A stretch of 64,000 bases of DNA from a virus, in the IMG/VR virus record IMGVR_UViG_3300009506_000003, positions 1-64,000 of that record; one strand, given 5' to 3'. Position numbers and translations under genes: made by a program. Numbering within the stretch: position 1 is the first letter of the stretch; every line of letters starts with the position of its first letter. Under the pieces are notes generated by a model that saw only the letters and a list, made by a program, of their open reading frames with translations, ran no database searches and was not told where the DNA came from. Positions 3,159 to 25,262 of this stretch are shown here, in pieces.

Positions 3159-5212
3159 AGCGCCGCCTTCTGCTCCTCGTAACCGGACTCAGATTGGCCG
3201 AGCGAGTCAGAGTCGTTTGCCATGCGAGCCAGAATCTTCTTCATCGGATCCGGCATCGACTTAAAGATGCCCACCGGGTCCTTCTTGAACTCGTGGGCCA
3301 TGTCATCCGTGAACTCCGCGGTGACCTTGTCGGTGTGGTTCTCGGCCAAGTTCTTGAGTGACCTGTCGGTCACTCGGTCAGCCCCGTGCTCCCACACCAC
3401 CTCGGCAGTCTTGTCGATGCCGAACGTGGACGCCCAGGGATCCAAGATCACCCGGTCCCACCCTCGGTCGAGACCCTGCTCCACATCGAAGCGGCGCAGG
3501 CACTCAGCATAAGTGCTCGGCTCGAGGCTGGCGTGCTTCTCGAAGAGCTCGTCGAGGAACTCGCGCGCCTGGCCAGGAGCACACGCCGTCTTTCGCATCT
3601 CCACCGCTGCTTTCAAGTGCCCGGAAGCGGCGTAGGTCACCGCGCCTGCCTCGAAGATGTCCGCGTCCAGTGGATAGCCAATGGTGTACGCCTTGGCTGC
3701 GAGCTTGGTGGCGAACTGCCGACGAATCTCCGGCTGCATCCGGATGCCTTCCTCGTTGTAGTAGACTTCAGCCTTCTTCACGAGGTCCCACGAACTGATC
3801 GGGTAGTGACGGCTGCCATCAGGGAGGACCACCGCGTAGTCATCGTTGCTGAGCGGACGGGCTACCTTGACTTTGGGTGCCGGTCTTTGACCTGTGATGT
3901 CGACCATGGATTTCTTCTCCTTGTTTCCAAAAGACCTGAGAGCATCCCCAAGTCCTCGGCCGGTGAGACCTCCTGTGCCCCCACCAATAGCACTACCGAT
4001 CATGGTACCCAAAAGAGCACCTCCTGCTACCTGCTGGACAGTCTTCTCGGTCACTGCTTCCGCGGCAGGAGTACCCGTCAGAACCTTCTTGAGGACAGGG
4101 GCTGCCCGTGCAGCGCTGCCTGCTACAGCTCCTGCCGCGCCTCCCATCAGACCTGCTGCCGCCCCAAACATCATGCCCTTGCCCCGATCCTTGTCGCCGG
4201 CGGCCATCCCGCCGACCCCAGCACCGATCAATCCAGCACCGAGGGGCACTAGGGCCAACGCCTTTGCAGTCGACAAGGCCACCTTCTCGAGAATGGCTGG
4301 AGGGGTGATCTCGAATCGACGACATGCGTCGACGAGATTCGAAGCTGCCAGTTTCTGAGCTCCCTCAGGGAGCTTGTCCCCATGCTCGAGGAAGTAGATA
4401 ACCGACATGGCCGTGGTCCCCGGGTTGTGACAGGCGAACTTCCGAAGGACGTTTCCACTGTCGACGGCTACCAGGGCGAAGTCTTCGTGGGCCAGCTTCT
4501 CCTTCGGCAGGATGCGGGCCTCTTTGATGATCGCCGGGAGCACCGCTGGGGTTGGGAACTTGCCCTTCAGGGTCTCGCCCTTGTCATCGTACCAGTCGAG
4601 AACAACGCCGGCGTACTTGTTGAGGACAGGAGAAGCGGCCTTCTTCAAAGCCTTGGTTGCTGGCTTCTGCTCACGCTTGTCCTTGCCGAACAGTGCACCT
4701 GCCCCAAGACCAAGAGCTGCACCACCTCCAATGGATTTCAAGTAGCCTGGCCCCAAAGCTCGTCCACCCAACCCTCCAAGAGCTCCAGCAAGCATGCCGC
4801 GACCAGCTCCGAGTCGAGGGTCGTCGTGGGTAGCGCCACCAAGGGCACCTGTTGCCGCACCGGCAGCCATGCCAGGGGCAACCTGTTTGGCGAAGCTGGT
4901 GAGATGACGGATGCCCTCTTGCTTCCCGAGCTCACTGAAAGCTCTCGCTTCCTCTTGAGCCTTGCTGCTGAGATTGCCCAGCTCAGCCTGAGCCTGAGAG
5001 CTGAGGTTCTTCAGCTCCTGTTTCGCACCGGCTCCCGCCTCACCGATGCCAGACTTGACGTTCTGACCTACCCAACGACCTGGGGCAGTGCTCACACTGT
5101 GAAGCACGTCCTTGGCTTTCTGCCCGACGGCTCCGCCTTTGGCTCTCAACATGGTGAGGAGCTCTTGGATCTTCTGCCCTGCGGCGGCCTGCTTGAGTTG
5201 TTCCTCGGTCAT
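3155..5212 (-). CDS. Large putative virion/head protein with two glycine-zipper regions and repeated KxA motifs
   Basis: 685 aa with GAGGTG RBS; GxxxG arrays; motifs KQAA, KKAAS, KYAG, EKVAL, KTAC, EKHAS, DKTAE. Confidence 0.6.
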   Translation of the reverse strand: MTEEQLKQAAAGQKIQELLTMLRAKGGAVGQKAKDVLHSVSTAPGRWVGQNVKSGIGEAGAGAKQELKNLSSQAQAELGNLSSKAQEEARAFSELGKQEGIRHLTSFAKQVAPGMAAGAATGALGGATHDDPRLGAGRGMLAGALGGLGGRALGPGYLKSIGGGAALGLGAGALFGKDKREQKPATKALKKAASPVLNKYAGVVLDWYDDKGETLKGKFPTPAVLPAIIKEARILPKEKLAHEDFALVAVDSGNVLRKFACHNPGTTAMSVIYFLEHGDKLPEGAQKLAASNLVDACRRFEITPPAILEKVALSTAKALALVPLGAGLIGAGVGGMAAGDKDRGKGMMFGAAAGLMGGAAGAVAGSAARAAPVLKKVLTGTPAAEAVTEKTVQQVAGGALLGTMIGSAIGGGTGGLTGRGLGDALRSFGNKEKKSMVDITGQRPAPKVKVARPLSNDDYAVVLPDGSRHYPISSWDLVKKAEVYYNEEGIRMQPEIRRQFATKLAAKAYTIGYPLDADIFEAGAVTYAASGHLKAAVEMRKTACAPGQAREFLDELFEKHASLEPSTYAECLRRFDVEQGLDRGWDRVILDPWASTFGIDKTAEVVWEHGADRVTDRSLKNLAENHTDKVTAEFTDDMAHEFKKDPVGIFKSMPDPMKKILARMANDSDSLGQSESGYEEQKAAL

Positions 5213-14158: not shown

Positions 14159-14449
14159 ATGGGCTGGACCAAACACCCTGACGCCGTGCAGGCGTATCAG
14201 AGTGGGCGGAAGGAGGCGCTCTCGAGCGTCAGGAAGCTGACCAAAGCGATAAGGCTGGAGCTGCAAAGCCCCGGCGATCTCTACGGCCAGAACCTCCTGG
14301 AGCTCGGGCGCGCTCTCCATACCGACCTCCGAAGATTCATTGCATTCAGGCGTGGGGTGGGCGGCGACGAGGACGTCGACACGCAACCCTACGTCGACCT
14401 CCTCCTGGAGGTTTTCACTCAATTCAAATGGAGCGTGCATGTCCGGTAG
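14159..14449 (+). CDS. Hypothetical protein
   Basis: 96-aa ORF filling the gap to the polymerase. Confidence 0.55.
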   Translation: MGWTKHPDAVQAYQSGRKEALSSVRKLTKAIRLELQSPGDLYGQNLLELGRALHTDLRRFIAFRRGVGGDEDVDTQPYVDLLLEVFTQFKWSVHVR

Positions 14450-16787
14450 GACGTTGAACATAGGCCTCGACGGCCGAGTGGGCGTGCCACTTCCAGAATA
14501 CATCAAGACGGATGAGCAAGCTCAGGACCTCCTGCATCTGACTTTGAGGAAGGTGCAGGAGGACCCTGGCGACCTGATCGGGTGGGACACTGAAACGACC
14601 GGCAAGAAGATGCCATTCAAGGTCGGCAACAGGAACCCGCTCGATTGGATGTCCGACACGATCACATTCTGGTCGATGGCCTTCCGCGACCGTGGGGAGT
14701 ACCGAAGGTTCTGCCTGCGGGGTGAGCACTTCCAGTACTTCGCACCACTGCTGGAGAATCCAGACGCATGGTTTGCATGCTGGAACGCCAAGTACGATGC
14801 CCACATCGCGTGGAACATGGGCATCAACATCTGGAATGCCCATATCGTTGACGGTCTGGCTCTAGCTGGACTGCACGACGAGAACAAGCTGCAGCGCGGC
14901 TTGAAGGTCTGTGCACTCCACTGGTGTGGGCTGCCAATGACCAAGTACGCAGACCTGTTCCCGGAGAAGGACATACACGGCAAAAAGATAAAGGAGTTCG
15001 AGACGAGTCTGTACGACCTCCCGCTTGAGCCGGTAGTCGACTACGCCTCGTACGACGCCTTCTGCCACCTGGTCACTGTGGAGTGGGTACGAGACAAGCT
15101 CAAGCAGACGATGATTCAAGAGGGCTACAGCCTCTGGGATTATTTCCTCCGCATGGAGATGAAGATGACCGAGGTGCTCTGGAGGATGGAGCGCCGAGGG
15201 ATGTACCTGGACGAGGAGTACCTGAGGGCAAAGATTCCTGTCATCGAGAAGGAAGTCGAAGCCATCAACAGAGAGATCGCGCGTGTCTCTGGACGTCCCG
15301 ACATCAACATCAACTCAACTCCCCAGCTCACTGACTTCTTTTTCGGGAAGGGCAAGGGTTGCATGGGGTTGAAGCCCGTGAAGATGACCAAAGGTGGGAA
15401 GCCTTCCGTTGACAAGGAAGTGCTCGACCTCCTGGCCAGCTCAGGGATAGACCTGGCGAAGAAGATCGTCCGCCACCGTAGCATCAGCAAAACGAAGAGC
15501 ACCTACCTCGACACGCTGCTGAACTTGTCCGCCTACTACGGGGACAATCGAATCCACCCAGGGTTCAACCAGTTCGGTGCCAAGACAGGTCGGTTCTCTA
15601 CGGACGTTCCCAATTCGCAAAACTTTCCTCGTCCTGACACTGACGAGTTTGGAATACGGAAAGCCTTCATTGCTCCTCCGGGCTACAAGCTCATCGTAGC
15701 CGACTACGAGCAGTTGGAAATGCGGATCATGGCACACATGTCTGGCGACCGCGCCATGATCAAAGCCATCCTGGATGGAATGGACCTTCACTCCTTCACG
15801 GTGTCTCGAATGGTTCCGGGAGTCACCTACGAAGAAGTGGTAGAAGCCAAGAAGGCAAAGGAGCGCACCGACAAGCAGAAGTGGTTGGTGGGTCTTCGGC
15901 AGGACTCCAAAGCCATTGGGTTCGGCATCATCTACGGTGCTGGTCCGCCTCGTATCGCTGAGGCCATCGAGATCTCGGACGAGGACATCCAAGCTCGCAT
16001 CGAGCGTCTCACTCGCGAAGAGATGAAGCTGGACATGATGGTAGAGGAGCACGGGTATCTGTGGCAGGACCCGAAGTGGAAGCGTGACAAGGCTCGAGCC
16101 CTGAGTGGTCGGGTCAAGAGAATGCGACAGCGCAATTCACTTCTGGACGAAGAGGCCGCCGTGATACTGGCTGCTCGTCAGTCAATAGCCAGTGAGAAAA
16201 TCCAAGCGTACTTCGCCACGTTCCCTGGCGTGAAGCAGTACATGCAGGACGTCCCAGAAGAGTGCCGTCAGTCTATGGAGTGGACCGAAGACGGACAGCC
16301 TCGCTTTCCACCCAAGAAGAGCTCGGACCCGGTCACCGCATCGGGAGAGTACGATTGGGACATGGAAGAGTGGCTGCCGGCATCCAAGTTACTCACCCGC
16401 ACTGGTCATCACAAGCCGTTCGGTTTTGTGAAGACACTCTGCGGCCGGTACCGACGGTTGGAGGACATCAACCACACCAACTACGTGTTCAAGTCTGAGG
16501 CCGAACGCCAGGCTGTGAACACGACCATTCAGGGATCCGCTTCTGACATCACTAAGGGTGCCATGCTACGCATCGAACGCGACCGTCGATTGAACATGAT
16601 GGGCGTGGAGATGCTGAACCAAGTCCACGACGAGCTCATCTTGGCAGTTCCGGAAGAGTACGCAGAACAAGCATTGCCTATCGTTGAAGAGTGCATGATG
16701 CACCCCTTCAGAAAAGGCGAGGACCCTCTGCGTGTCCCTATCCCTACAGAGGGCAAAATCGTAGACTCATGGGCCGAAGGCAAATGA
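14439..16787 (+). CDS. polA: Family A DNA polymerase (3'-5' exonuclease plus polymerase, no 5'-3' exonuclease)
   Basis: WDTET, WNAKYD, YASYDA; KTGRFS; motif A ADYEQLEMRIMAH; motif B RQDSKAIGFGIIYG; NTTIQGSASDI; motif C QVHDEL. Confidence 0.97.
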   Translation: MSGRTLNIGLDGRVGVPLPEYIKTDEQAQDLLHLTLRKVQEDPGDLIGWDTETTGKKMPFKVGNRNPLDWMSDTITFWSMAFRDRGEYRRFCLRGEHFQYFAPLLENPDAWFACWNAKYDAHIAWNMGINIWNAHIVDGLALAGLHDENKLQRGLKVCALHWCGLPMTKYADLFPEKDIHGKKIKEFETSLYDLPLEPVVDYASYDAFCHLVTVEWVRDKLKQTMIQEGYSLWDYFLRMEMKMTEVLWRMERRGMYLDEEYLRAKIPVIEKEVEAINREIARVSGRPDININSTPQLTDFFFGKGKGCMGLKPVKMTKGGKPSVDKEVLDLLASSGIDLAKKIVRHRSISKTKSTYLDTLLNLSAYYGDNRIHPGFNQFGAKTGRFSTDVPNSQNFPRPDTDEFGIRKAFIAPPGYKLIVADYEQLEMRIMAHMSGDRAMIKAILDGMDLHSFTVSRMVPGVTYEEVVEAKKAKERTDKQKWLVGLRQDSKAIGFGIIYGAGPPRIAEAIEISDEDIQARIERLTREEMKLDMMVEEHGYLWQDPKWKRDKARALSGRVKRMRQRNSLLDEEAAVILAARQSIASEKIQAYFATFPGVKQYMQDVPEECRQSMEWTEDGQPRFPPKKSSDPVTASGEYDWDMEEWLPASKLLTRTGHHKPFGFVKTLCGRYRRLEDINHTNYVFKSEAERQAVNTTIQGSASDITKGAMLRIERDRRLNMMGVEMLNQVHDELILAVPEEYAEQALPIVEECMMHPFRKGEDPLRVPIPTEGKIVDSWAEGK

Positions 16788-17221: not shown

Positions 17222-17627
17222 GCACGCAGACCCAGCTCCCGAAGTTTTCGGTTGCAGAGCTTGCGGCCTGATCTACGACCCAAGCGTGTACCGGCACTCA
17301 GGACAGGACGGTACGAGACGGAACGAAACGGCACGGCCGTGGAACTTTTGTCCTGAATGTGGTGAGCAGGGGGTTGAACTCCTCGGCCCCTTGCCCCACT
17401 CAGTAGAAAACGCCGACGGCTTCTTCCTCATTGCAGAAGATGGGGAGAGCCAAGGCCCGTACCCATCCGAGTCCGGTGCCAGCGACGCACTATGGGACTG
17501 GTTCAACAGGAGACAGCATGCCAAAGAAGAAGGTAGCAAAGAAACCAGCCGTGAAGGCCAAGTCATCCGCCTCGTCAAAGGAGGCAGTCAAGAAAGCCTC
17601 CCCGAAGAAGGCCGCTCAGAAGAGTGA
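17166..17627 (+). CDS. Zn-ribbon hypothetical protein (start uncertain)
   Basis: CRACG...CPECG; the only plausible frame between the HU and recA genes. Confidence 0.55.
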   Translation: MLERALSTVLNLLNRLDDEHADPAPEVFGCRACGLIYDPSVYRHSGQDGTRRNETARPWNFCPECGEQGVELLGPLPHSVENADGFFLIAEDGESQGPYPSESGASDALWDWFNRRQHAKEEGSKETSREGQVIRLVKGGSQESLPEEGRSEE

Positions 17628-18858
17628 GCCGAAGATCACTGCTCGAGAGCGGGCAGACGCTTTCGTGGAGCGTATGCGTACTGACCCTGCCTTCAGAGGC
17701 AAAGTCCAAGTGCGCAGCGCCAGGAGCTACCAGACACCGTACAACCTGCGGAGACCCACGGGTGTACTGGGCTTGGACCTGGCCCTACGTGGAGGGTTCC
17801 CCGCCGGCGGAGCGTCCCAAATCTACGGGCCGCGCTCCACCGGCAAGACCCACCTGGCGTTCCGAGTAGCTGGGGAGGTCCAGAAGAACTACGGCAACAA
17901 CGCCATCGTCGCCTTGGGGATGAGCGAAGGTCGGGCTGACGTAGGCTTCGCCAGGAGCGCGGGCTTCTGCATGGCCTACTCCGAAGAGAAGATCAAAGAG
18001 CTCGAGGGCATTCGTGTCAACAAGGGGCTGCCAAAGTTCACCGCAGAAGAGAGAGCCGACTTGCGCATGCAAATCGGGGAGGTGCTCTTCCTGCACGGCT
18101 CCACTGGTGGGGATATGCTTCAGAGCACTATCGAAGTCCTGACGGACATGGGTAGTGCCTGCCAGCTCATCCTCATCGACTCCCTTGGCTCCCTGCTGAC
18201 TCCAGACCAGGACAAGGGCAAGGTCAGTGACCGGCAGTACGGCGGAAGCTCAGGTATCATCACGACCTGGCAGACCAAAGTGCAGCCGCTCTACATCAAC
18301 GACCAGCCTGACGGGTCGTGTCTCGAGACCACCATCCTTGGCATCAACCAGGTGCGTGCCCTCATTGGGGGCCCTTCCCCGAACATGACGAGACCTGCCG
18401 CCGGTGCCAAGTCCTGGGAGCATGCTCAGCTCAACAGCATCGAGCTCAAGCGCGGAGAACCACTGTGGGCTGACACAAAGCACACCAAGCAGGCGGGCCA
18501 CATCGTGAAGTGGTCCATCAAGAAGGGGAAGGCCGGAACCCATGACGGGTTGAAAGGGGAGTACGACTGGCGGCACATCCTCGATTCGGAGCCCATCTTT
18601 TGGAAGGACGTGCTCGAGGTAGGCAAGTCGTACGCCATCGACGTTGTGCAGGACCTGGTGGAATCGGCTATCTCGGTCGGTGTCATCTCCCGCGCGGGGT
18701 CATGGCTGACTTGGGCAGACGAAGAAAACCGTGTCATCGCCAAGGCACAAGGTGCGGACAAGATGGCCGACATCATCCAGGATGAGGACGAGGAGCTCGA
18801 GGAGCGCCTTCGGAAAGCCTGCCTGGATGCTGCTGACCTGACGGTGCGGTACAACTGA
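17518..18858 (+). CDS. recA: RecA/UvsX-like recombinase
   Basis: PTGVLGLDLALRGGFPAG, Walker A GPRSTGKT, Walker B ILIDSL, INQVR, GVISRAGSWL; AGGAG RBS. Confidence 0.92.
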   Translation: MPKKKVAKKPAVKAKSSASSKEAVKKASPKKAAQKSEPKITARERADAFVERMRTDPAFRGKVQVRSARSYQTPYNLRRPTGVLGLDLALRGGFPAGGASQIYGPRSTGKTHLAFRVAGEVQKNYGNNAIVALGMSEGRADVGFARSAGFCMAYSEEKIKELEGIRVNKGLPKFTAEERADLRMQIGEVLFLHGSTGGDMLQSTIEVLTDMGSACQLILIDSLGSLLTPDQDKGKVSDRQYGGSSGIITTWQTKVQPLYINDQPDGSCLETTILGINQVRALIGGPSPNMTRPAAGAKSWEHAQLNSIELKRGEPLWADTKHTKQAGHIVKWSIKKGKAGTHDGLKGEYDWRHILDSEPIFWKDVLEVGKSYAIDVVQDLVESAISVGVISRAGSWLTWADEENRVIAKAQGADKMADIIQDEDEELEERLRKACLDAADLTVRYN

Positions 18859-19364
18859 TGCCGGTCAACACCCAACTGCTCTGCAAAGAGTGTGACCACA
18901 CGACCTCCATCAACCTCACTGTCTACCGTCAAAGGAAGAAAGCGGGGCTGGAGATCCTGTGCTCCCACTGCGGAGCAGAACTTTCCCTGAGAAGGGATAA
19001 GCCCCGGCTAGGGGCTACTGACAGTCAAAAGCGGAGTCGGAACCAGGAGAAGCGGGTGGCCTCTCGTGAGGGCGGCCGTCGCCAACCTGGATCCGGAGCC
19101 GTCGATGGCTTCGAGGGTGACGTCCGTGTCACCGGGAAGTACCGAGGCGAGTGCAAGTTCACCAGAGCCAAGTCGTTCAGCCTGAAGCTCTCCGAGCTCC
19201 TCAAGCTCGAGCGGCAAGCTGGCTCTGGTGAGCTGCCTGCCTTTGACATCGAGTTCCAAGGGGTCAGCCCCCACAAGCGGTATGTCGTTCTCCCTGAATG
19301 GGTCTTCGACACACTGATGGAGGAGTCCGGAAGGAGAACGGATGCAGATACTGACAATCGCTGA
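18858..19364 (+). CDS. Hjc-like PD-(D/E)XK nuclease/resolvase with N-terminal Zn ribbon
   Basis: CKEC...CSHC; QEKRVA...RQPGSGA...GDV...ECK. Confidence 0.78.
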   Translation: MPVNTQLLCKECDHTTSINLTVYRQRKKAGLEILCSHCGAELSLRRDKPRLGATDSQKRSRNQEKRVASREGGRRQPGSGAVDGFEGDVRVTGKYRGECKFTRAKSFSLKLSELLKLERQAGSGELPAFDIEFQGVSPHKRYVVLPEWVFDTLMEESGRRTDADTDNR

Positions 19365-20151
19365 GCTCAACGAAGCCCTCGAGAAGGACTTCAAAGGGGT
19401 CCAGCACTACATGAAGCAGGTCACCGTCGAGGAAGACCTGTCCAACTATCTCAAGTGGCTAGCCGACAATGAAGTGGTCACTGAGGTGCATGCCCGGCTG
19501 GAGAGGTACAAGCGCCGCAGCAAAGGTATTCACCCAAGCTCCGCTTCGAAGTCCAAGCCGTGCTTGCTCAAGCTCTACTACGAATGCACGTTCGAGGTGG
19601 AGCCCCTGGCAGCATACGACGAGAAGATGCAGCTCACATGGGACGTGGGCACCTTGCTCCACGAGACCTACCAAACGTGGTTCCGGGACATGTACGGGGA
19701 CCAGTTTCAAGCTGAGGTTCCTCTGAAGAGCGAGGACGGCTACATCAAAAGCCGCACCGACGGGATCTTCTCGTTCTCCCACTACGGGTTCATCCTCGAA
19801 GCCAAAAGCATCAAGGAGGGTGGCAACTACGGGTGGGAAACCATCCAAGCAAAGCCGATGGATGACCACGTTCGCCAGGCGCACTTCTACATGTGGCTGG
19901 CAGACGTTCCCTTCGCCATCATCTTCTACATGAACAAGAATGCAGGCGAGTTCAAAGAGCACGCCGTCATGTTCAACCAGAAGCTCTGGGACGAGATGAT
20001 GGACAATGTGATTGCCCCTGTGGTCGAAGCGGCCTATCTGGGCGGGGGCAAAGAGCTCGTACCCGCAAACCCGCAATGGTCATGTCGGTGGTGCGCGTTC
20101 AGTCATTCATGCCCAGAGAAAGGAGGAAAGGAAGAAGATGTCGACTGGTAG
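19342..20151 (+). CDS. Cas4-like/RecB-family PD-(D/E)XK exonuclease with Fe-S Cys motif
   Basis: HPSS...PC...GTLLHE...RTDGI...LEAKS...QAHFYM...CRWCAFSHSC. Confidence 0.85.
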   Translation: MQILTIAELNEALEKDFKGVQHYMKQVTVEEDLSNYLKWLADNEVVTEVHARLERYKRRSKGIHPSSASKSKPCLLKLYYECTFEVEPLAAYDEKMQLTWDVGTLLHETYQTWFRDMYGDQFQAEVPLKSEDGYIKSRTDGIFSFSHYGFILEAKSIKEGGNYGWETIQAKPMDDHVRQAHFYMWLADVPFAIIFYMNKNAGEFKEHAVMFNQKLWDEMMDNVIAPVVEAAYLGGGKELVPANPQWSCRWCAFSHSCPEKGGKEEDVDW

Positions 20152-20911
20152 GCCGGCAGAGATTGAAATGGACTTCGAGGCCAGTGAGAACGACGGCATC
20201 GAAGCCTACACCTTCGCGGAGAAGGTGAAGCAGCGAGTGTCCATGCTGGGAGTCGGGAACCACAAGCGCCCAAAGCTCGCAGAGGACCACGTGAGCATCT
20301 ACCCAGGAGAGAAAGCCGGGAACTATTTTGAGGGCAAGCTGCCCTCCGTCATCCGGAAGCTCGACCTGGATCAGCTATCTGCTCTCTACTCGCTCTACTC
20401 CAACTGGTATGGGTATCTGACCACCCAAACCATGTTGGTTGCAGCAGAGAGGTCCGAGGCCATCCGGCAACGGGACTTTCTCAAGCGCCACCTGAAGAAC
20501 CACTACCGCAACCGCATCAATCCGGAGACGAACAAGAAGTTCCCGGAGGCGTCCATCTTGGACTTCGCTGAGGCGGACAAGAGGTTCATCCAGGCCAACG
20601 CCACGTACGAGCAGCACAACGCTCTGTACGAGATCCTCGACGCCATGCGAAAGGTGGCTGACCAGGACATGAAGGTGATCAGTCGGGAGGTCACCATCCA
20701 GCAGGAGAAGCTGCGCAAGGAACTCTTCCTGCAGGGCTTCGGTAAACGCGGTCAGGACACTGAGTTCGAGGCTGCACTAGGAGACGAGGACTATGGCTCG
20801 ACCAACGATCAAGCTCAGCGCCCACCGCCCAGTAGGCCGAAGCGTGAGGTCAAGCGATACGCCGGCGGTCCGGGCAAGCCCAGAGTTCAGGGCAAACCCC
20901 GAGGGCGCTAG
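20138..20911 (+). CDS. Putative UvsY-like recombination mediator (helical)
   Basis: Helical pattern KKFPEASILDFAEADKRFIQA...ILDAMRK...ISREVT within the recombination cluster; GGAGG RBS. Confidence 0.5.
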   Translation: MSTGRPAEIEMDFEASENDGIEAYTFAEKVKQRVSMLGVGNHKRPKLAEDHVSIYPGEKAGNYFEGKLPSVIRKLDLDQLSALYSLYSNWYGYLTTQTMLVAAERSEAIRQRDFLKRHLKNHYRNRINPETNKKFPEASILDFAEADKRFIQANATYEQHNALYEILDAMRKVADQDMKVISREVTIQQEKLRKELFLQGFGKRGQDTEFEAALGDEDYGSTNDQAQRPPPSRPKREVKRYAGGPGKPRVQGKPRGR

Positions 20912-21440
20912 GCTAGAGCTGACGACAGAGCTCCCTCCCTCCACCAACCAGCTATACCAACGCCGGCGTGGGGGGCAAATTGCTCTGACAGAGGAAGCCC
21001 AAAGGCTTCGCATCCGGGTGAAGCACGTTGTGGTAGAGCAGCTCGGAAAGGTGATGTCATTCCCGACTGACCCCGAGCTCATCTACCGCTTCGACATGAT
21101 CGCCTACTTCGACTCCCTGGAGAACCCTGGGTGGTTCGAGTTCTACGAGAAGGACACCTACTACACCAAGGCCTCCAAGGACGGAAAGCACAAGAAAGGA
21201 GAGCTGAAGAACCGCAAGGGAGAAAGAAAGGCAAAGACTCGGTATAAGCGTATCGACGTCGACAATAGGGTGAAGTTCATCCAGGACTGTGTGTCGAAGT
21301 CGGTAGGCATCCCTGATGATGCCCAAATCTTCATTGGGTCTCAGGAGAAACGTGAAGACCCGGACAACCCAAGGGTGGAAGTCACCGTGAGCGTAGTGAC
21401 CGACACTGACCGGTTCTTCCCACAGAAAAGGAGGCGATGA
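20793..21440 (+). CDS. rusA: RusA-family Holliday junction resolvase
   Basis: LPPSTNQLY...DVDNRVKFIQDCV...DDAQI...PRVEVTV. Confidence 0.85.
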   Translation: MARPTIKLSAHRPVGRSVRSSDTPAVRASPEFRANPEGARLELTTELPPSTNQLYQRRRGGQIALTEEAQRLRIRVKHVVVEQLGKVMSFPTDPELIYRFDMIAYFDSLENPGWFEFYEKDTYYTKASKDGKHKKGELKNRKGERKAKTRYKRIDVDNRVKFIQDCVSKSVGIPDDAQIFIGSQEKREDPDNPRVEVTVSVVTDTDRFFPQKRRR

Positions 21441-21775
21441 TGCCAAAGATTCCCGTGGTTGACATCGACCTCTCCGAACTCAACCACTCAGAGCTCGTGT
21501 TGTTGGCCAAGTGGTGTGACCTTCCAGCGTCCAGGGCCCTTCCTCGAGAAGTCCTCATTGAGTCCCTCCAGTCATTCCAGCCCGTTGACATCCCCATCCC
21601 GTTCGACAAGAAACGGCAGGAGATGTCCAACTGGCTCAAGCGCTGGTGGGACGTAGTGCGGATGCAAGTGTCCAAGAAAGTCTGCCCGAGGTGTGACCTG
21701 TGCAAGGACTTGCAAGTGCTGGACTGCTACACGAAGAACGAGGCCAACATCAACCCCAAGAGGGCCCGCCGCTGA
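21437..21775 (+). CDS. Hypothetical Cys-containing protein
   Basis: AGGAGG RBS; CPRCDLC...DCY. Confidence 0.65.
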   Translation: MMPKIPVVDIDLSELNHSELVLLAKWCDLPASRALPREVLIESLQSFQPVDIPIPFDKKRQEMSNWLKRWWDVVRMQVSKKVCPRCDLCKDLQVLDCYTKNEANINPKRARR

Positions 21776-22971
21776 TGGAACGCACATGCCAGTACTGCAA
21801 GAACATACTGGGATGCCCGCACCTCGGTGACGAGCACGGCCGATTCGTGGCCGAGAAAGTGATCACGGCCGACAACCCCCGCGACTGCCGAGGCTTCGCA
21901 GAGATCGGAGACCGTGAGAAACAGGGCGTCAGAGAGCGGTTGTATGGGCTGTCCGGATTGGGGTACTTGCGTACGCTCCACGAGTTACCCAACATTTTGA
22001 TGGACGGCCTCAGACAAGGAGAGAAGGATGAGCTGATGTACGAAGAAAAACCGGACTTTCAAAACCCGAAGTTGCTCTACGAGGGCATGCCTGTATCTGA
22101 GCGCGAGGAGGTGCTCAGGTACGAAACCGACGAGGAAGGGCAAGTCATTGTCGAGACGGACAGCGAAGGGAACGAGGTCAAGCGTGCGCGCCCCTCGTAC
22201 CACCTGAAGCAGTACGCCATCGACGAAGAAGGCCCCATTCGTCTCAACCACAGTGTGTGTTGGTTCTGGACAACCAACCAGCTCGTTGACTACATCCTGA
22301 AGGCGGAGCTCGAAGCGGGCATCCTCTTCAAGGAGAAGAAATCCCGGGCCGCCAACGATAGGGCGACCCCCAAACTACCTCCTGCAACGCAGGAACGGGA
22401 GACCAAGATGACAGACGGCAAGCGAGTACGTGTTACCAGAGGCGGCGGCAGCAAGGGCGCGGCGAAGCCCGCGGCGGGCAGAGTGAACCCGAAGCGCGCC
22501 ACCCCCAAGCCCGCGGCGGGCAATACCTCCACGGGGGGAGGCGGAGGTGGAGGAGGCCGGGTTGCCCGCCCGGCTCGAGGAAAGACCGCGGCGGCCCCTC
22601 AGACTGAGGCTGAAGCCCCCGCCGGCGCCCCCACCGGGGACCTCGGAGACGTCAAAGAGATGTTGGCAGAGCTCAAGGAGATGGTGACCGAGCTCAAGGC
22701 GGAGAATGCCGAGCTCAAGGCTCAGATCACGGACCTTCGGGAGACCGTCATCGACACCATCACCATCTTCCACGACATCATGGCCCAGACTGCGGGCACC
22801 CTGCAGTACCCGGCCGAGGATGAGGAAGGCAACGACGTCTTTGACGAGGACGGCAACCAGGTCATGAACAATGGCCCCGAGCTGTACCCCAAGGCGTCCA
22901 AGATCTTCGCGTACCTCGACGGCACTGCCTTCGAGGCCGATGAGGACGAGGGAGGCGAGGGGGAAGAGTAG
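21775..22971 (+). CDS. Multi-module hypothetical protein (Cys-rich N-terminus, basic disordered region, coiled coil, acidic tail)
   Basis: TGATG-coupled ATG 21775; CQYC..GCPH...DC; probable internal start at 22408. Confidence 0.7.
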   Translation: MERTCQYCKNILGCPHLGDEHGRFVAEKVITADNPRDCRGFAEIGDREKQGVRERLYGLSGLGYLRTLHELPNILMDGLRQGEKDELMYEEKPDFQNPKLLYEGMPVSEREEVLRYETDEEGQVIVETDSEGNEVKRARPSYHLKQYAIDEEGPIRLNHSVCWFWTTNQLVDYILKAELEAGILFKEKKSRAANDRATPKLPPATQERETKMTDGKRVRVTRGGGSKGAAKPAAGRVNPKRATPKPAAGNTSTGGGGGGGGRVARPARGKTAAAPQTEAEAPAGAPTGDLGDVKEMLAELKEMVTELKAENAELKAQITDLRETVIDTITIFHDIMAQTAGTLQYPAEDEEGNDVFDEDGNQVMNNGPELYPKASKIFAYLDGTAFEADEDEGGEGEE

Positions 22972-23009
22972 AGGCGCCTGCTGACGGCGAGCAGGTGCCC
23001 GAGATTGTC
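22959..23009 (+). promoter_or_regulatory. Putative -1 programmed ribosomal frameshift signal
   Basis: G GGG GAA at 22959-22965, one codon before the TAG; 7-nt spacer; stem GGCGCCTGCT (22973-22982) / AGCAGGTGCC (22990-22999); loop GACGG can pair with TTGTC (23005-23009). Confidence 0.7.
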
Positions 23010-23147
23010 ATCCCCTCCCAATACCTGAGGGCGATGGGGCTCGAGCAGCTCCAGGAGATAGCGTCTCAGGTTGGTATCGGGTATGCCGGCCTCGGGGAAG
23101 CGGCCCTTCGGGAAAAGCTGATCCTGGAAGGCACGCCTGAGGACTGA
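22965..23147 (+). CDS. -1 frame extension encoding a Rho_N/HeH-like helical domain (not in the ORF track)
   Basis: RVEAPADGEQVPEIVIPSQYLRAMGLEQLQEIASQVGIGYAGLGEAALREKLILEGTPED-stop; ends 5 nt before the terminator. Confidence 0.65.
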   Translation, partial: RVEAPADGEQVPEIVIPSQYLRAMGLEQLQEIASQVGIGYAGLGEAALREKLILEGTPED

Positions 23148-23152
23148 ACAAG

Positions 23153-23191
23153 AGCCCTCCCCTGGTGCAAGCTGGGGGAGGGCTTCTTTTT
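23153..23191 (+). terminator. Rho-independent terminator
   Basis: Perfect 10-bp stem AGCCCTCCCC/GGGGAGGGCT followed by TCTTTTT. Confidence 0.8.
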
Positions 23192-23201
23192 GGAGGACAT
23201 C

Positions 23202-23528
23202 ATGGAACACGACATGCTCGACGACGAGTTCGAAGAGCGAAGGTCCCAAGACCTGTCCCCACAGAGGCTGGCGCTGAACACGGTCCTGAAGGAGCGTGAC
23301 AAGCAGCGTGGGCAGTGGGGGCCAGAGCACGACCGGGAGCACGATGTGACCGATTGGCACACCATCCTGTCGGTCTACCTGGGGAAGTTGGGTTACGAGA
23401 CACCCCTGTACCAGCAAGCCGGCTTCGACAAGGAGAAAGCCAAGAAGAGGTTGGTGCAGATCTCTGCGATTGCCCTGGCCGCCGTAGAGGCGCTCAGCGT
23501 TGTGCCAGAGTCGACAGGTACAGAGTAG
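23202..23528 (+). CDS. MazG-like all-alpha protein, apparently lacking the catalytic acidic residues
   Basis: VLKERDKQRGQWG...WHTILSVYLGK...RLVQISAIALAAVEAL resembles the phage MazG-like pattern ER.RQ..KWG...W..IL.EE.GE...EL.Q.AA; GGAGG RBS. Confidence 0.55.
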   Translation: MEHDMLDDEFEERRSQDLSPQRLALNTVLKERDKQRGQWGPEHDREHDVTDWHTILSVYLGKLGYETPLYQQAGFDKEKAKKRLVQISAIALAAVEALSVVPESTGTE

Positions 23529-23937
23529 CCCCAACGATGCCAACGACCGCGCCGACGGCTCCCACGACGTAAGGCCAGATGGGACCGCCGGCGTTGTCGA
23601 TGGCTTCTTGCTCTGCATCGTGCCACAAACCTTCGACTCTTTTTATCCGTTCGTCCTTGATCACGATGTCATCCTGCAGAGTCTGGATGATGGCATCCTT
23701 CTGCTGGATGATGCCGGCGTACTTGAGATCGATGTCTTTGTAGATCTCCAGACGCTGGCTCGCGTCCCAGAGCTTCCCATCCATCTGCAGCAGGAGCTTG
23801 TACTCGGTGAAGGTGAAGTACTGCACTCGGGTCATCTGCCCCTCGAGCTTGAGCTCAAGAGGAGTGCCCAGGGGCATGTAGTGGACCTCCGCCTCCACAG
23901 GAGCGGACAGGGTCACCATCAACATCAAGGCCAGCAC
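23494..23937 (-). CDS. Membrane protein (signal or anchor, coiled coil, C-terminal TM), spanin-like
   Basis: Hydrophobic N-terminus, heptad region, and C-terminal TM IWPYVVGAVGAVVGIVGATLYL. Confidence 0.55.
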   Translation of the reverse strand: MLALMLMVTLSAPVEAEVHYMPLGTPLELKLEGQMTRVQYFTFTEYKLLLQMDGKLWDASQRLEIYKDIDLKYAGIIQQKDAIIQTLQDDIVIKDERIKRVEGLWHDAEQEAIDNAGGPIWPYVVGAVGAVVGIVGATLYLSTLAQR

Positions 23938-23940
23938 AAG

Positions 23941-24273
23941 CTACTCCACGGTGCCGTCGTACTGTTCGACGTTCACTTCCAGCCAAGTGAGGATCTGCCG
24001 CTCGAGCTCGTCGACGTACACCTCGTCGTTCGCAGCAGACACCGCAGCGATGATGGTGTTGTAGTCCTCACCCTGAATGAGATGCTTGTTGACGGGGGAT
24101 GCAGAGCCAGGTTGGGGCCGGTCGCCTTCGAGCGACCCGAGGCCGACGAGGGCGGTGATGATTCTGGTTCTGCGATTGACGGTGTACTCCAAGAGTACGG
24201 CTTTGGGGTACGTGTTCCCGCTGTCCAATGACCCAGGATTCCATGCAGATGTCAGAGTGATTGCCAAGGGCAT
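23941..24273 (-). CDS. Hypothetical protein
   Basis: AGGAGA RBS; 110 aa. Confidence 0.65.
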   Translation of the reverse strand: MPLAITLTSAWNPGSLDSGNTYPKAVLLEYTVNRRTRIITALVGLGSLEGDRPQPGSASPVNKHLIQGEDYNTIIAAVSAANDEVYVDELERQILTWLEVNVEQYDGTVE

Positions 24274-24274
24274 G

Positions 24275-24724
24275 TCAGTCTCTCCTATCCACGACCACCA
24301 AATCGTCCCACGACGTGGCGTCCGAGATTGCTTTGCTGCGCGCGTTGGCCAGGGCGGTTTGCTCTTCGAGCTTTTTCTTTAGCTCGTCAATGTCATTCTG
24401 CAACGCCTTGACCTTCTTGTGCGCCTCATTTCTTTTCTGACCGTTCTCCGCCAGCTTGTGATCCTCTGCTGCCTGCTTTTGCTCCTCTTCCTTCTTGCGG
24501 AGCTCGTAGGCCAGCTTGGCTGCCTCCCTACGAGATCGGACCAGCAGGAAGCCCATGATGGAGAACCCAAGGACAGCAATGCCAATGAGGATGAGGTAGA
24601 CGACGAACGAGGAGCCCGAAGGACTTCCGCCCTCCGAGCTCCCCTTCCTTTCCGTCGCGGCCTTGACCAGATCGACGAGGAGGTGGGGCTTTTCAGCCTC
24701 CTTCACCTTCTCTTCGTCAGGCAT
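24275..24724 (-). CDS. Single-TM coiled-coil protein (i-spanin-like)
   Basis: TM FVVYLILIGIAVLGFSIMGFLLV followed by a long charged coiled coil. Confidence 0.55.
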   Translation of the reverse strand: MPDEEKVKEAEKPHLLVDLVKAATERKGSSEGGSPSGSSFVVYLILIGIAVLGFSIMGFLLVRSRREAAKLAYELRKKEEEQKQAAEDHKLAENGQKRNEAHKKVKALQNDIDELKKKLEEQTALANARSKAISDATSWDDLVVVDRRD

Positions 24725-25262
24725 CTGCCTTGGCCTCTTCGGGAGGAGGATCTTTGGAGTCCGACGTGTACTCGTGGATGGCGACCGCCAACGGGCCGCT
24801 CAGCACGATTTGGATGGCCTCGATCCAGTGCATACCGAACGCCAAGTTGGCGACCAAGCCTGCCGCTGCTCCGAGACCGAGAGTGCTGTACTTGATGACG
24901 CGCTTACCGTCCTTCGTCTTGAACCAGGCGATGTTCTTGCCCAGGACTTTGATCAGGCTCAGCAAGAGCTTGAACGCGACGCCCAGAATCACCAGGATCA
25001 TGGTGCCCAAAGGCATCTTGTTTTCCTTCTCACCGACGAGATCCTTGATGATCTTCGCTGCGTCCGCACCATCGGCTACGACATCTGCGACGCCGGCGTC
25101 AGCTTCCGTGGCGGCAGCCATCTCCTTCTCATCGACCTTGCCATCCTTGTTGGTATCGAGGTCGGAGCTCACCACTGGGGTCGCGGGGGCCGGGGGCTCC
25201 TGCGCATTCGCTGGGATGGATACCAGAAAGACTCCGAAAAGCAGTGCTCGTAGCAGGTTCAT
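24717..25262 (-). CDS. Membrane protein with signal peptide, EF-hand-like loop and 2-3 TM segments (holin-like)
   Basis: MNLLRALLFGVFLVSIPANA; DTNKDGKVDEKE; hydrophobic helices. Confidence 0.6.
   Translation of the reverse strand: MNLLRALLFGVFLVSIPANAQEPPAPATPVVSSDLDTNKDGKVDEKEMAAATEADAGVADVVADGADAAKIIKDLVGEKENKMPLGTMILVILGVAFKLLLSLIKVLGKNIAWFKTKDGKRVIKYSTLGLGAAAGLVANLAFGMHWIEAIQIVLSGPLAVAIHEYTSDSKDPPPEEAKADA

Follow-up and report, generated by a model that had tools for sequence, protein, structure and literature searches.

The DNA considered here, referred to as the window, consists of the first 64 kb (positions 1 to 64,000) of the IMG/VR virus record IMGVR_UViG_3300009506_000003, which has a length of 132,593 bp, showed no end repeats and is estimated to be about 69% complete. 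We describe the 3' end of an open reading frame (ORF) on the plus strand, located at 21775-22971, together with the small overlapping frame that follows it. The ORF encodes a protein of 398 amino acids (aa), for which 19 homologues were found. It begins with an ATG at 21775 that shares one base with the upstream TGA, and it terminates with TAG at 22969-22971. Its final codons are GAG GGG GAA GAG TAG. They contain, in register with the ORF, the heptamer G GGG GAA (22959-22965), which is the proposed -1 shift site and is separated from the stop codon by a single codon. The -1 frame is closed up to 22943 and open from 22944 to 23147; no more than 28 nt, including the G run, are shared with the zero frame. 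Read from AGA 22965, as it would be after a slip, the -1 frame comprises 60 codons (22965-23144) and a TGA at 23145-23147. G+C content by codon position in this extension (22965-23147, plus strand) amounts to 0.77/0.41/0.73, a coding-like pattern.

Two RNA structures accompany these frames on the same strand. A G+C-rich hairpin of 10 bp with a 7-nt loop, the candidate stimulator of the shift, occupies 22973-22999 and begins 7 nt past the heptamer. Its arms, GGCGCCUGCU and AGCAGGUGCC, pair 22973-22982 with 22990-22999 around the loop GACGGCG. The stop codon of the -1 frame is followed after 4-5 nt by an intrinsic terminator (23152-23191), composed of a 15-pair stem (stem-loop at 23152-23185) and a T run, which closes the operon. 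Hairpin and T-run equivalents come after the extension stop in the four other loci described below as well. A preliminary description of this DNA had reported the ending of the ORF with the heptamer in register, 60 open codons in the -1 frame, a distance of 5 nt to the terminator and the 10-bp hairpin behind a 7-nt spacer. Coordinates and frame were verified, the distance to the stem-loop at 23152 was measured as 4-5 nt, and the fold energies given below confirm the hairpin.

Judging from the sequence, it is very probable that this gene yields a second, domain-extended protein by way of a programmed -1 ribosomal frameshift whose site is G GGG GAA. The majority of ribosomes would translate 21775-22968 and stop at TAG 22969, producing the 398-aa protein. 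In a fraction of cases, the hairpin 7 nt downstream would cause a pause at the moment when GGG occupies the P site and GAA the A site, and both tRNAs would step back by one base to GGG GGA. On this heptamer the tRNA-Gly can re-pair perfectly (GGG to GGG) and the tRNA-Glu with one G-U pair in the middle position (GAA to GGA). Translation would then resume in the -1 frame at AGA 22965 and add 60 codons, giving a predicted trans-frame product of 457 aa (residues 1-397 plus 60 aa) with a C-terminal domain of the Rho_N/SAP type. We infer both the slippage and its frequency. Readthrough of the TAG in the zero frame was rejected as a candidate, since it gives RRLLTASRCPRLSSPPNT followed by a stop and not the domain.

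Conservation of the junction in five loci

The junction was compared in five loci: the window, L002 (a 192-kb IMG/VR contig; L004 represents the same place), L003, L005 and L006. Their main proteins are 41-62% identical in pairwise comparison and their G+C content ranges from 48 to 61%. The sequence GAG GGG GAR is invariant in all five, with 0, 1 or 2 codons between it and the TAG, and the acidic tails flanking it are unalignable. The zero-frame stop is TAG throughout (L002 4327, L003 2310, L005 3905, L006 1463), 0, 3 or 6 nt past the heptamer; in the window TAG terminates 18 of 56 greedy ORFs. In-register G GGG GAR occurs exactly once in each main gene, always within the last 2-5 codons, and a homologue of the small domain is encoded in the -1 frame in all five loci. 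Homologues had been suggested in the preliminary description as a check on the heptamer and the -1 ORF, and both proved to be kept in all five loci.

The heptamer is not rare by itself, being found in register three times among the window's 56 greedy ORFs. Its signal exceeds chance because it is conserved across loci, not because it is rare in the window. Two more G GGG GAR heptamers in register are found well inside long minus-strand ORFs of 1007 aa and 1745 aa, distant from any stop codon. Given the dipeptide E-G and the codon use of each gene, the chance of finding GAG GGG is 0.07-0.21 per locus, and the product over the four other loci is about 3e-4, figures that overstate independence because there are only five loci and they share ancestry. 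The wider set of homologues is known from protein sequence. A G-E dipeptide is present within the last three residues in 15 of 18 homologues (P0002-P0019), and the other three end in GGN, EGK and AEG. Of these, the G-G-N end of P0007 and the E-G-K end of P0008 would fit G GGA AAC and G GGA AAG, respectively, if the heptamers are derived back from the protein.

The distance from the heptamer to a conserved Met in the extension is 69, 66, 63, 66 and 66 nt in the five loci. These differences are whole codons, as expected of translated sequence and not of a spacer between two genes. A diverged relative in sequencing run X1 has 104 nt in place of the 110-nt junction. Two called proteins whose starts happen to be placed further upstream (P0026 and P0034) read ..GGRIG.. 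and ..GGIGK.. through the site, at the expected distance; on back-translation, these residues would correspond to the -1 reading of G GGG GAA (GAA) TAG.

In the window a 76-nt fold reaches -32.6 kcal/mol (z -2.73; equally stable in 1 of 200 shuffles), and the 42 nt past the heptamer reach -20.1 kcal/mol, a value equalled by 1.5% of 523 local 42-nt windows (a share of 0.015). The corresponding hairpin of L002 has a spacer of 5 nt, a stem of 11 bp and a 42-nt energy of -18.5 kcal/mol (fraction of equally stable local 42-nt windows, 0.009). That of L003 has a 6-nt spacer and 10 bp with one bulge (-21.2 kcal/mol; 0.008), that of L005 a 5-nt spacer and 9 bp (-15.3 kcal/mol; 0.15) and that of L006 a 12-nt spacer and 6 bp, with a weak outer helix that begins earlier (-11.1 kcal/mol; 0.42). 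A hairpin thus begins 5-7 nt past the heptamer in four of the five loci, and the stem sequences are unrelated. The window and L005 have the loop GACGGCG in common, and three positions of their stems differ on both sides. We conclude that the hairpin is conserved in position, being clear in four of the five loci, and make no claim of covariation. The preliminary description had proposed to check the stem for covariation; a hairpin was found in homologues, and RNAalifold on a sequence alignment detected no compensatory pair.

An H-type pseudoknot, which the preliminary description had added to the hairpin, was not supported. The loop sequence GACGG can indeed pair with TTGTC at 23005-23009 through three Watson-Crick and two G-U pairs. 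Pairing of this quality is at chance level: when the 25 nt downstream were shuffled, 176 of 1000 permutations matched it, and an equivalent better than chance was seen in only one of the four other loci.

Start codons and alternative explanations

It might be thought that the extension is simply a separate small gene, and this is the alternative that survives best. Such a gene would encode 50 aa from GTG 22995 or 37 aa from ATG 23034, possibly by translational coupling: on arrival at TAG 22969, ribosomes would unpair the hairpin's 5' arm, which would release the GTG in the 3' arm. The GTG (22995-22997, plus strand) is in the -1 frame and is the sole candidate for an independent start of the 50-aa protein; it sits in the stem, as in known coupled genes. 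Within the clade of the window a GTG or ATG is found just ahead of a conserved P-E, gene callers use this equivalent M/V-P-E start in all four close relatives to call a protein of 50-51 aa, and L002 has a TTG. Even the peptide from the conserved Met would still span the Rho_N-like helix pair, and 7 of 41 called small proteins begin there.

The start codons are poorly supported when all loci are considered. Between the preceding stop of the -1 frame and the heptamer there is no ATG, GTG or TTG in any of the five loci. Past the heptamer, the first -1 start is GTG at +30 in the window, TTG at +27 in L002 and GTG at +42, within conserved sequence, in L003. The position of the V/L start is GAG in L003 and CTA in L005 and L006, and the latter two have no start up to the Met at +66, which is 13 codons into conserved sequence and where Shine-Dalgarno (SD) pairing is +0.4 kcal/mol. 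SD matches are weak at every candidate: GTG 22995 has -2.8 kcal/mol compared with -9.3 kcal/mol for the next gene, and over all candidate starts the range is +0.4 to -6.1 kcal/mol (the range also found for the Met), compared with -9.3 to -10.2 kcal/mol for the neighbouring genes past the terminator.

A larger sample gives the same picture. When 1.84 billion cluster representatives were searched with the extension profile, 52 proteins matched at E <= 0.001, 39 of 34-75 aa and 13 long ones; the small proteins were gathered by similarity to the extension alone, whatever gene precedes each. When 41 small called proteins were aligned with the five loci, their N-termini fell at 16 different positions. 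The column of the conserved Met holds M in 30 of the 46 sequences, A in 7, L in 6, K and V in one each and a gap in one, so that 15 sequences have another residue in place of Met. In the sequences that reach further upstream, positions ahead of this column are conserved (P at P12 in 18 of 21 sequences, L at L21 in 29 of 37). A separate gene would also leave unexplained the invariant synonymous choice GAG GGG GAR, the constant -1 relation of the frames and the whole-codon spacing. Taking both sides together we regard this explanation as unlikely. The preliminary description had stated that no convincing start exists. The weak SD matches and the lack of any start before the Met in L005 and L006 largely bear this out, and the statement has to be qualified by GTG 22995, which does exist and is used by the callers in close relatives. 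A conserved start belonging to the extension itself, looked for across the loci and in the 46-sequence alignment, was not found.

Transcriptional slippage is a further possibility, in which RNA polymerase would insert one G in the run of five so that some mRNAs carry both parts in one frame. There is a homopolymer run at the junction in all five loci, and one extra base does restore the frame. Neither the GAR codon, nor the closeness of the stop, nor the hairpin at a distance of 5-7 nt is required by such a mechanism. Known bacterial and viral transcriptional slippage sites are longer A or T runs, and five G are short by comparison. We think it very improbable.

The G run could finally be miscounted by one base in the assembly, or a recent frameshift mutation could have split one gene; homopolymers are error-prone and both parts lie on one transcript, but with the same -1 arrangement in five loci assembled separately from different samples, no homologue fused in frame and no insertion or deletion in the contigs described next, this explanation has hardly any credibility left. 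A Logan contig of 42,203 nt and depth 17.3 from run X1 shows no difference over 22500-23400; X1 may be the source sample, and its contig therefore counts as a second assembly and not as a second sample. Run X4, which belongs to another study, contributed a 151-nt contig from a 93%-identical relative; this contig spans 22951-23078 and has nine substitutions and no gap. No insertions or deletions at the stretch are listed in four runs. An error in the G run, against which the preliminary description had advised a check, is excluded by the agreement of the independent assembly, the relative and the five loci.

Apart from the shared ancestry of the loci, several observations weigh against a programmed frameshift. 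The heptamer is non-canonical (it does not conform to X XXY YYZ), and its support in tail-chaperone genes is mostly annotation. The hairpin is only moderate in L005 and weak in L006, and RNAalifold found no common stem and no compensatory pair in a MAFFT alignment of the five junctions, an alignment that, given hairpins of unequal length and unlike sequence, is not structural. An independent or coupled start is possible in the window's own clade (GTG or ATG, and TTG in L002). None of the 19 homologues of the main protein carries the small domain in frame, a fusion that would have been direct proof of joint action. Fused forms were also absent among the proteins of 108-2000 aa in a search with the extension profile A3, which is weak evidence. 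Finally, a look-up of RNA runs holding the stretch listed none. Nevertheless, the core of the preliminary description, a -1 frameshift that adds a Rho_N/HeH-like domain, passed the comparative tests: the heptamer is kept in five of five loci and the hairpin in four of five, no start is conserved and the length of the G run is the same.

The main protein, its proposed extension and the gene neighbourhood

The extension is by profile and fold a domain of the helix-extended loop-helix type (Rho_N/SAP/HeH), covering its residues 18-55 (23016-23129, plus strand). An AlphaFold2 (AF2) model of the extension has a pLDDT of 82 and helices at residues 18-23, 26-36 and 45-55. Among 48,161 chains the best structural match was the N-terminal domain of Rho (1a62_A; Z 5.7, root-mean-square deviation (rmsd) 2.0, 45 residues aligned), followed by SAP, LEM, Ku70 and SLX4 SAP domains with Z of 4-5; these Z values are modest, as expected for 45 residues. 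A Foldseek search with the same model returned nothing at E <= 0.001. Pfam family PF07498 (Rho_N) matched the window extension with 16.3 bits and E 0.0096, below the gathering cut-off of 24.9 bits, and matched five of eight members of the extension family at E <= 1 (best E 1.2e-4). A link to established members at profile level is provided by the 13 long proteins found with the extension profile: ten were scanned, all ten contain tandem Rho_N above the Pfam cut-off, and several add secondary SAP or HeH matches. Among the long proteins, P0038, P0039, P0047, P0058 and others have 172-559 aa with 3-5 tandem repeats of the Rho_N type. The Rho_N/HeH-like character that the preliminary description had read from the letters is thus backed by profiles and by the fold match to Rho. 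Since this fold class often binds nucleic acid, the extension may do so too.

The 398-aa main protein is less easily classified. Its N-terminus is rich in Cys and is followed by an alpha/beta domain; a basic linker, predicted to be disordered, then leads to a long helix, a small beta domain and a tail of acidic residues. The AF2 model has a mean pLDDT of 60.5 and is confident only at residues ~90-190 and 290-380; it contains a helix of 48 residues (291-338). The 19 homologues besides the query, obtained from a search of 5.8 billion proteins, are 29-70% identical and 258-469 aa long, and the longer ones have an extended Ala/Pro-rich linker and an extended acidic tail. Scans of Pfam and PHROG gave weak coiled-coil matches only. 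A sequence profile search of the PDB gave nothing below E 0.03, Foldseek nothing at E <= 0.001 and the ESM Atlas no usable match; VIA-align matches to the model were largely of single helices. Neither the main protein nor the extension had a tblastn match in phage GenBank records. No relative was detected in IMG/VR with P0010 or in GTDB genomes with A2, and there is therefore no host clue and no prophage copy.

Residues 109-184 of the main protein (~22099-22326), a confidently modelled domain, have their best VIA-align match, a weak one, in the same N-terminal domain of Rho (1a62_A; Z 5.4, rmsd 1.4, 48 residues), and in the AF2 model they additionally match the C-terminal part of T4 endonuclease VII. 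The main protein itself may, as a lead, already contain one HeH-like element. A second observation concerns an in-frame ATG at 22408-22410 (Met 212), directly before a conserved basic motif, G-K/R-R-V-R-V. This ATG is kept in all five loci (L002 3598, L003 1656, L005 3125, L006 668), in each case behind a purine-rich SD-like sequence (-4.9 to -8.5 kcal/mol), and a shorter C-terminal isoform starting there is possible.

The main ORF is the end of a plus-strand block of replication and recombination genes. The block includes a family-A DNA polymerase (PolA, 14340-16784), a UvsX/RecA-like recombinase (17431-18855), a Holliday-junction resolvase (18858-19361), a Cas4-like PD-(D/E)XK nuclease (19342-20148), RusA (20793-21437) and a 112-aa protein (21437-21772) directly upstream of the main ORF. 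Because its neighbours are PolA, the UvsX/RecA-like recombinase, resolvases, the Cas4-like nuclease and RusA, the main gene is non-structural as judged by context. This agrees with the preliminary description and places the gene away from the structural genes. The gene for the 112-aa protein (21437-21775, overlapping the start of the main ORF by one base) is also kept in L002 at 2650-2988. The N-terminus of its product (..LSELNHSELVLLAKWCDLPAS..) resembles a helix-extended-helix motif, the C-terminus reads CPRC..C..C, and Pfam gave only a weak match to DUF1660. Beyond the terminator, at ~23494-25262, genes on the opposite strand encode small membrane or coiled-coil proteins that lack family matches, and the first of them has a homologue in L002 at 4545-4985.

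The function of the two proposed forms may be sought in this context. By analogy with gpG and gpGT of phage lambda, the long helix might join them into mixed assemblies in which the domain of nucleic-acid-binding type is present on only some of the subunits. Prediction of a two-copy complex of residues 286-390 scored 0.14 (mark 0.42), which has no weight for or against self-association. Judging from the neighbouring genes, the target could be DNA in replication or recombination. A role of the main protein as 'scaffold' or 'DNA organiser' is conjecture, prompted by the neighbours and by three features of the protein, namely its long helix, basic linker and acidic tail.

Relation to known frameshift systems

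Annotated programmed frameshifts of tailed phages are almost confined to genes for tail chaperones and capsid proteins. The mechanism considered here is textbook knowledge; what is new is its setting, in this gene family and with this added domain. In the literature searched we found no report of this gene family in connection with frameshifting and Rho_N or HeH in phages, although the PRFect supplements may list predictions outside the chaperone genes. It is conceivable, and no more than a tentative generalisation, that large uncultured phages share a common design. In such a design the last gene of the replication operon would encode a scaffold-like oligomer, a -1 shift would provide a fixed minority of subunits with an anchor of the Rho_N/SAP type, and the heptamer would be interchangeable between lineages. 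If this is true, the design recurs and represents a non-structural counterpart of lambda G/GT, in which recoding sets the stoichiometry of a DNA-tethering subunit. A case in a replication module that is kept across 41-62% identity suggests that recoding is under-annotated elsewhere. It would also mean that the domain is mis-annotated in metagenomic protein sets, because gene callers omit the extension or else report it as an orphan mini-protein whose start is arbitrary. The junction offers a compact cassette (~22945-23020) that asks whether G GGG GAA and a simple hairpin suffice for frameshifting, and the protein family is one whose two forms would differ only by a module of the nucleic-acid-binding type.

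The closest parallels are the tail chaperones. As the sources describe gpG/gpGT of lambda and the SEA-PHAGES chaperones, a -1 shift occurs near the 3' end and the long form is the short form plus a C-terminal domain (PMC5009743, PMC10885494). The actinophage chaperones share even the heptamer. GGGGGAA is the 'fivetwo' motif of about 1000 annotated actinophage tail-chaperone frameshifts, and the second tRNA is described as re-pairing there on GGA by means of G-U (PMC10885494). The likely purpose is also alike, namely to set the ratio of two co-assembling forms. There are also differences. The window gene is located in a replication and recombination block and not between tail tube and tape measure genes, its product has no match to a chaperone family in Pfam or PHROG, and the added part is a domain of the Rho_N/SAP type. 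Furthermore, the site in the window is one codon from the stop, leaving a frame overlap of only 28 nt. A stop codon near the shift site can affect efficiency in other systems, as noted for pea enation mosaic virus (PMC5009743).

Two other systems resemble the window in part. The dnaX gene of E. coli is, like the window gene, associated with replication, and in both a heptamer with a downstream stem-loop would give two products from one message. The dnaX heptamer is A AAA AAG, an upstream SD element stimulates the shift, and the shift truncates tau to gamma, whereas the shift in the window would extend the protein. In T7 (10A/10B) and in Lactobacillus phage A2 a -1 frameshift provides the capsid protein with a C-terminal extension. 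As proposed for the window, the shift site is close to the stop codon, and some subunits of an oligomer thereby gain a small accessory domain. Those are virion proteins, while the gene in the window has a non-structural context and the domain it would acquire is of a nucleic-acid-binding type.

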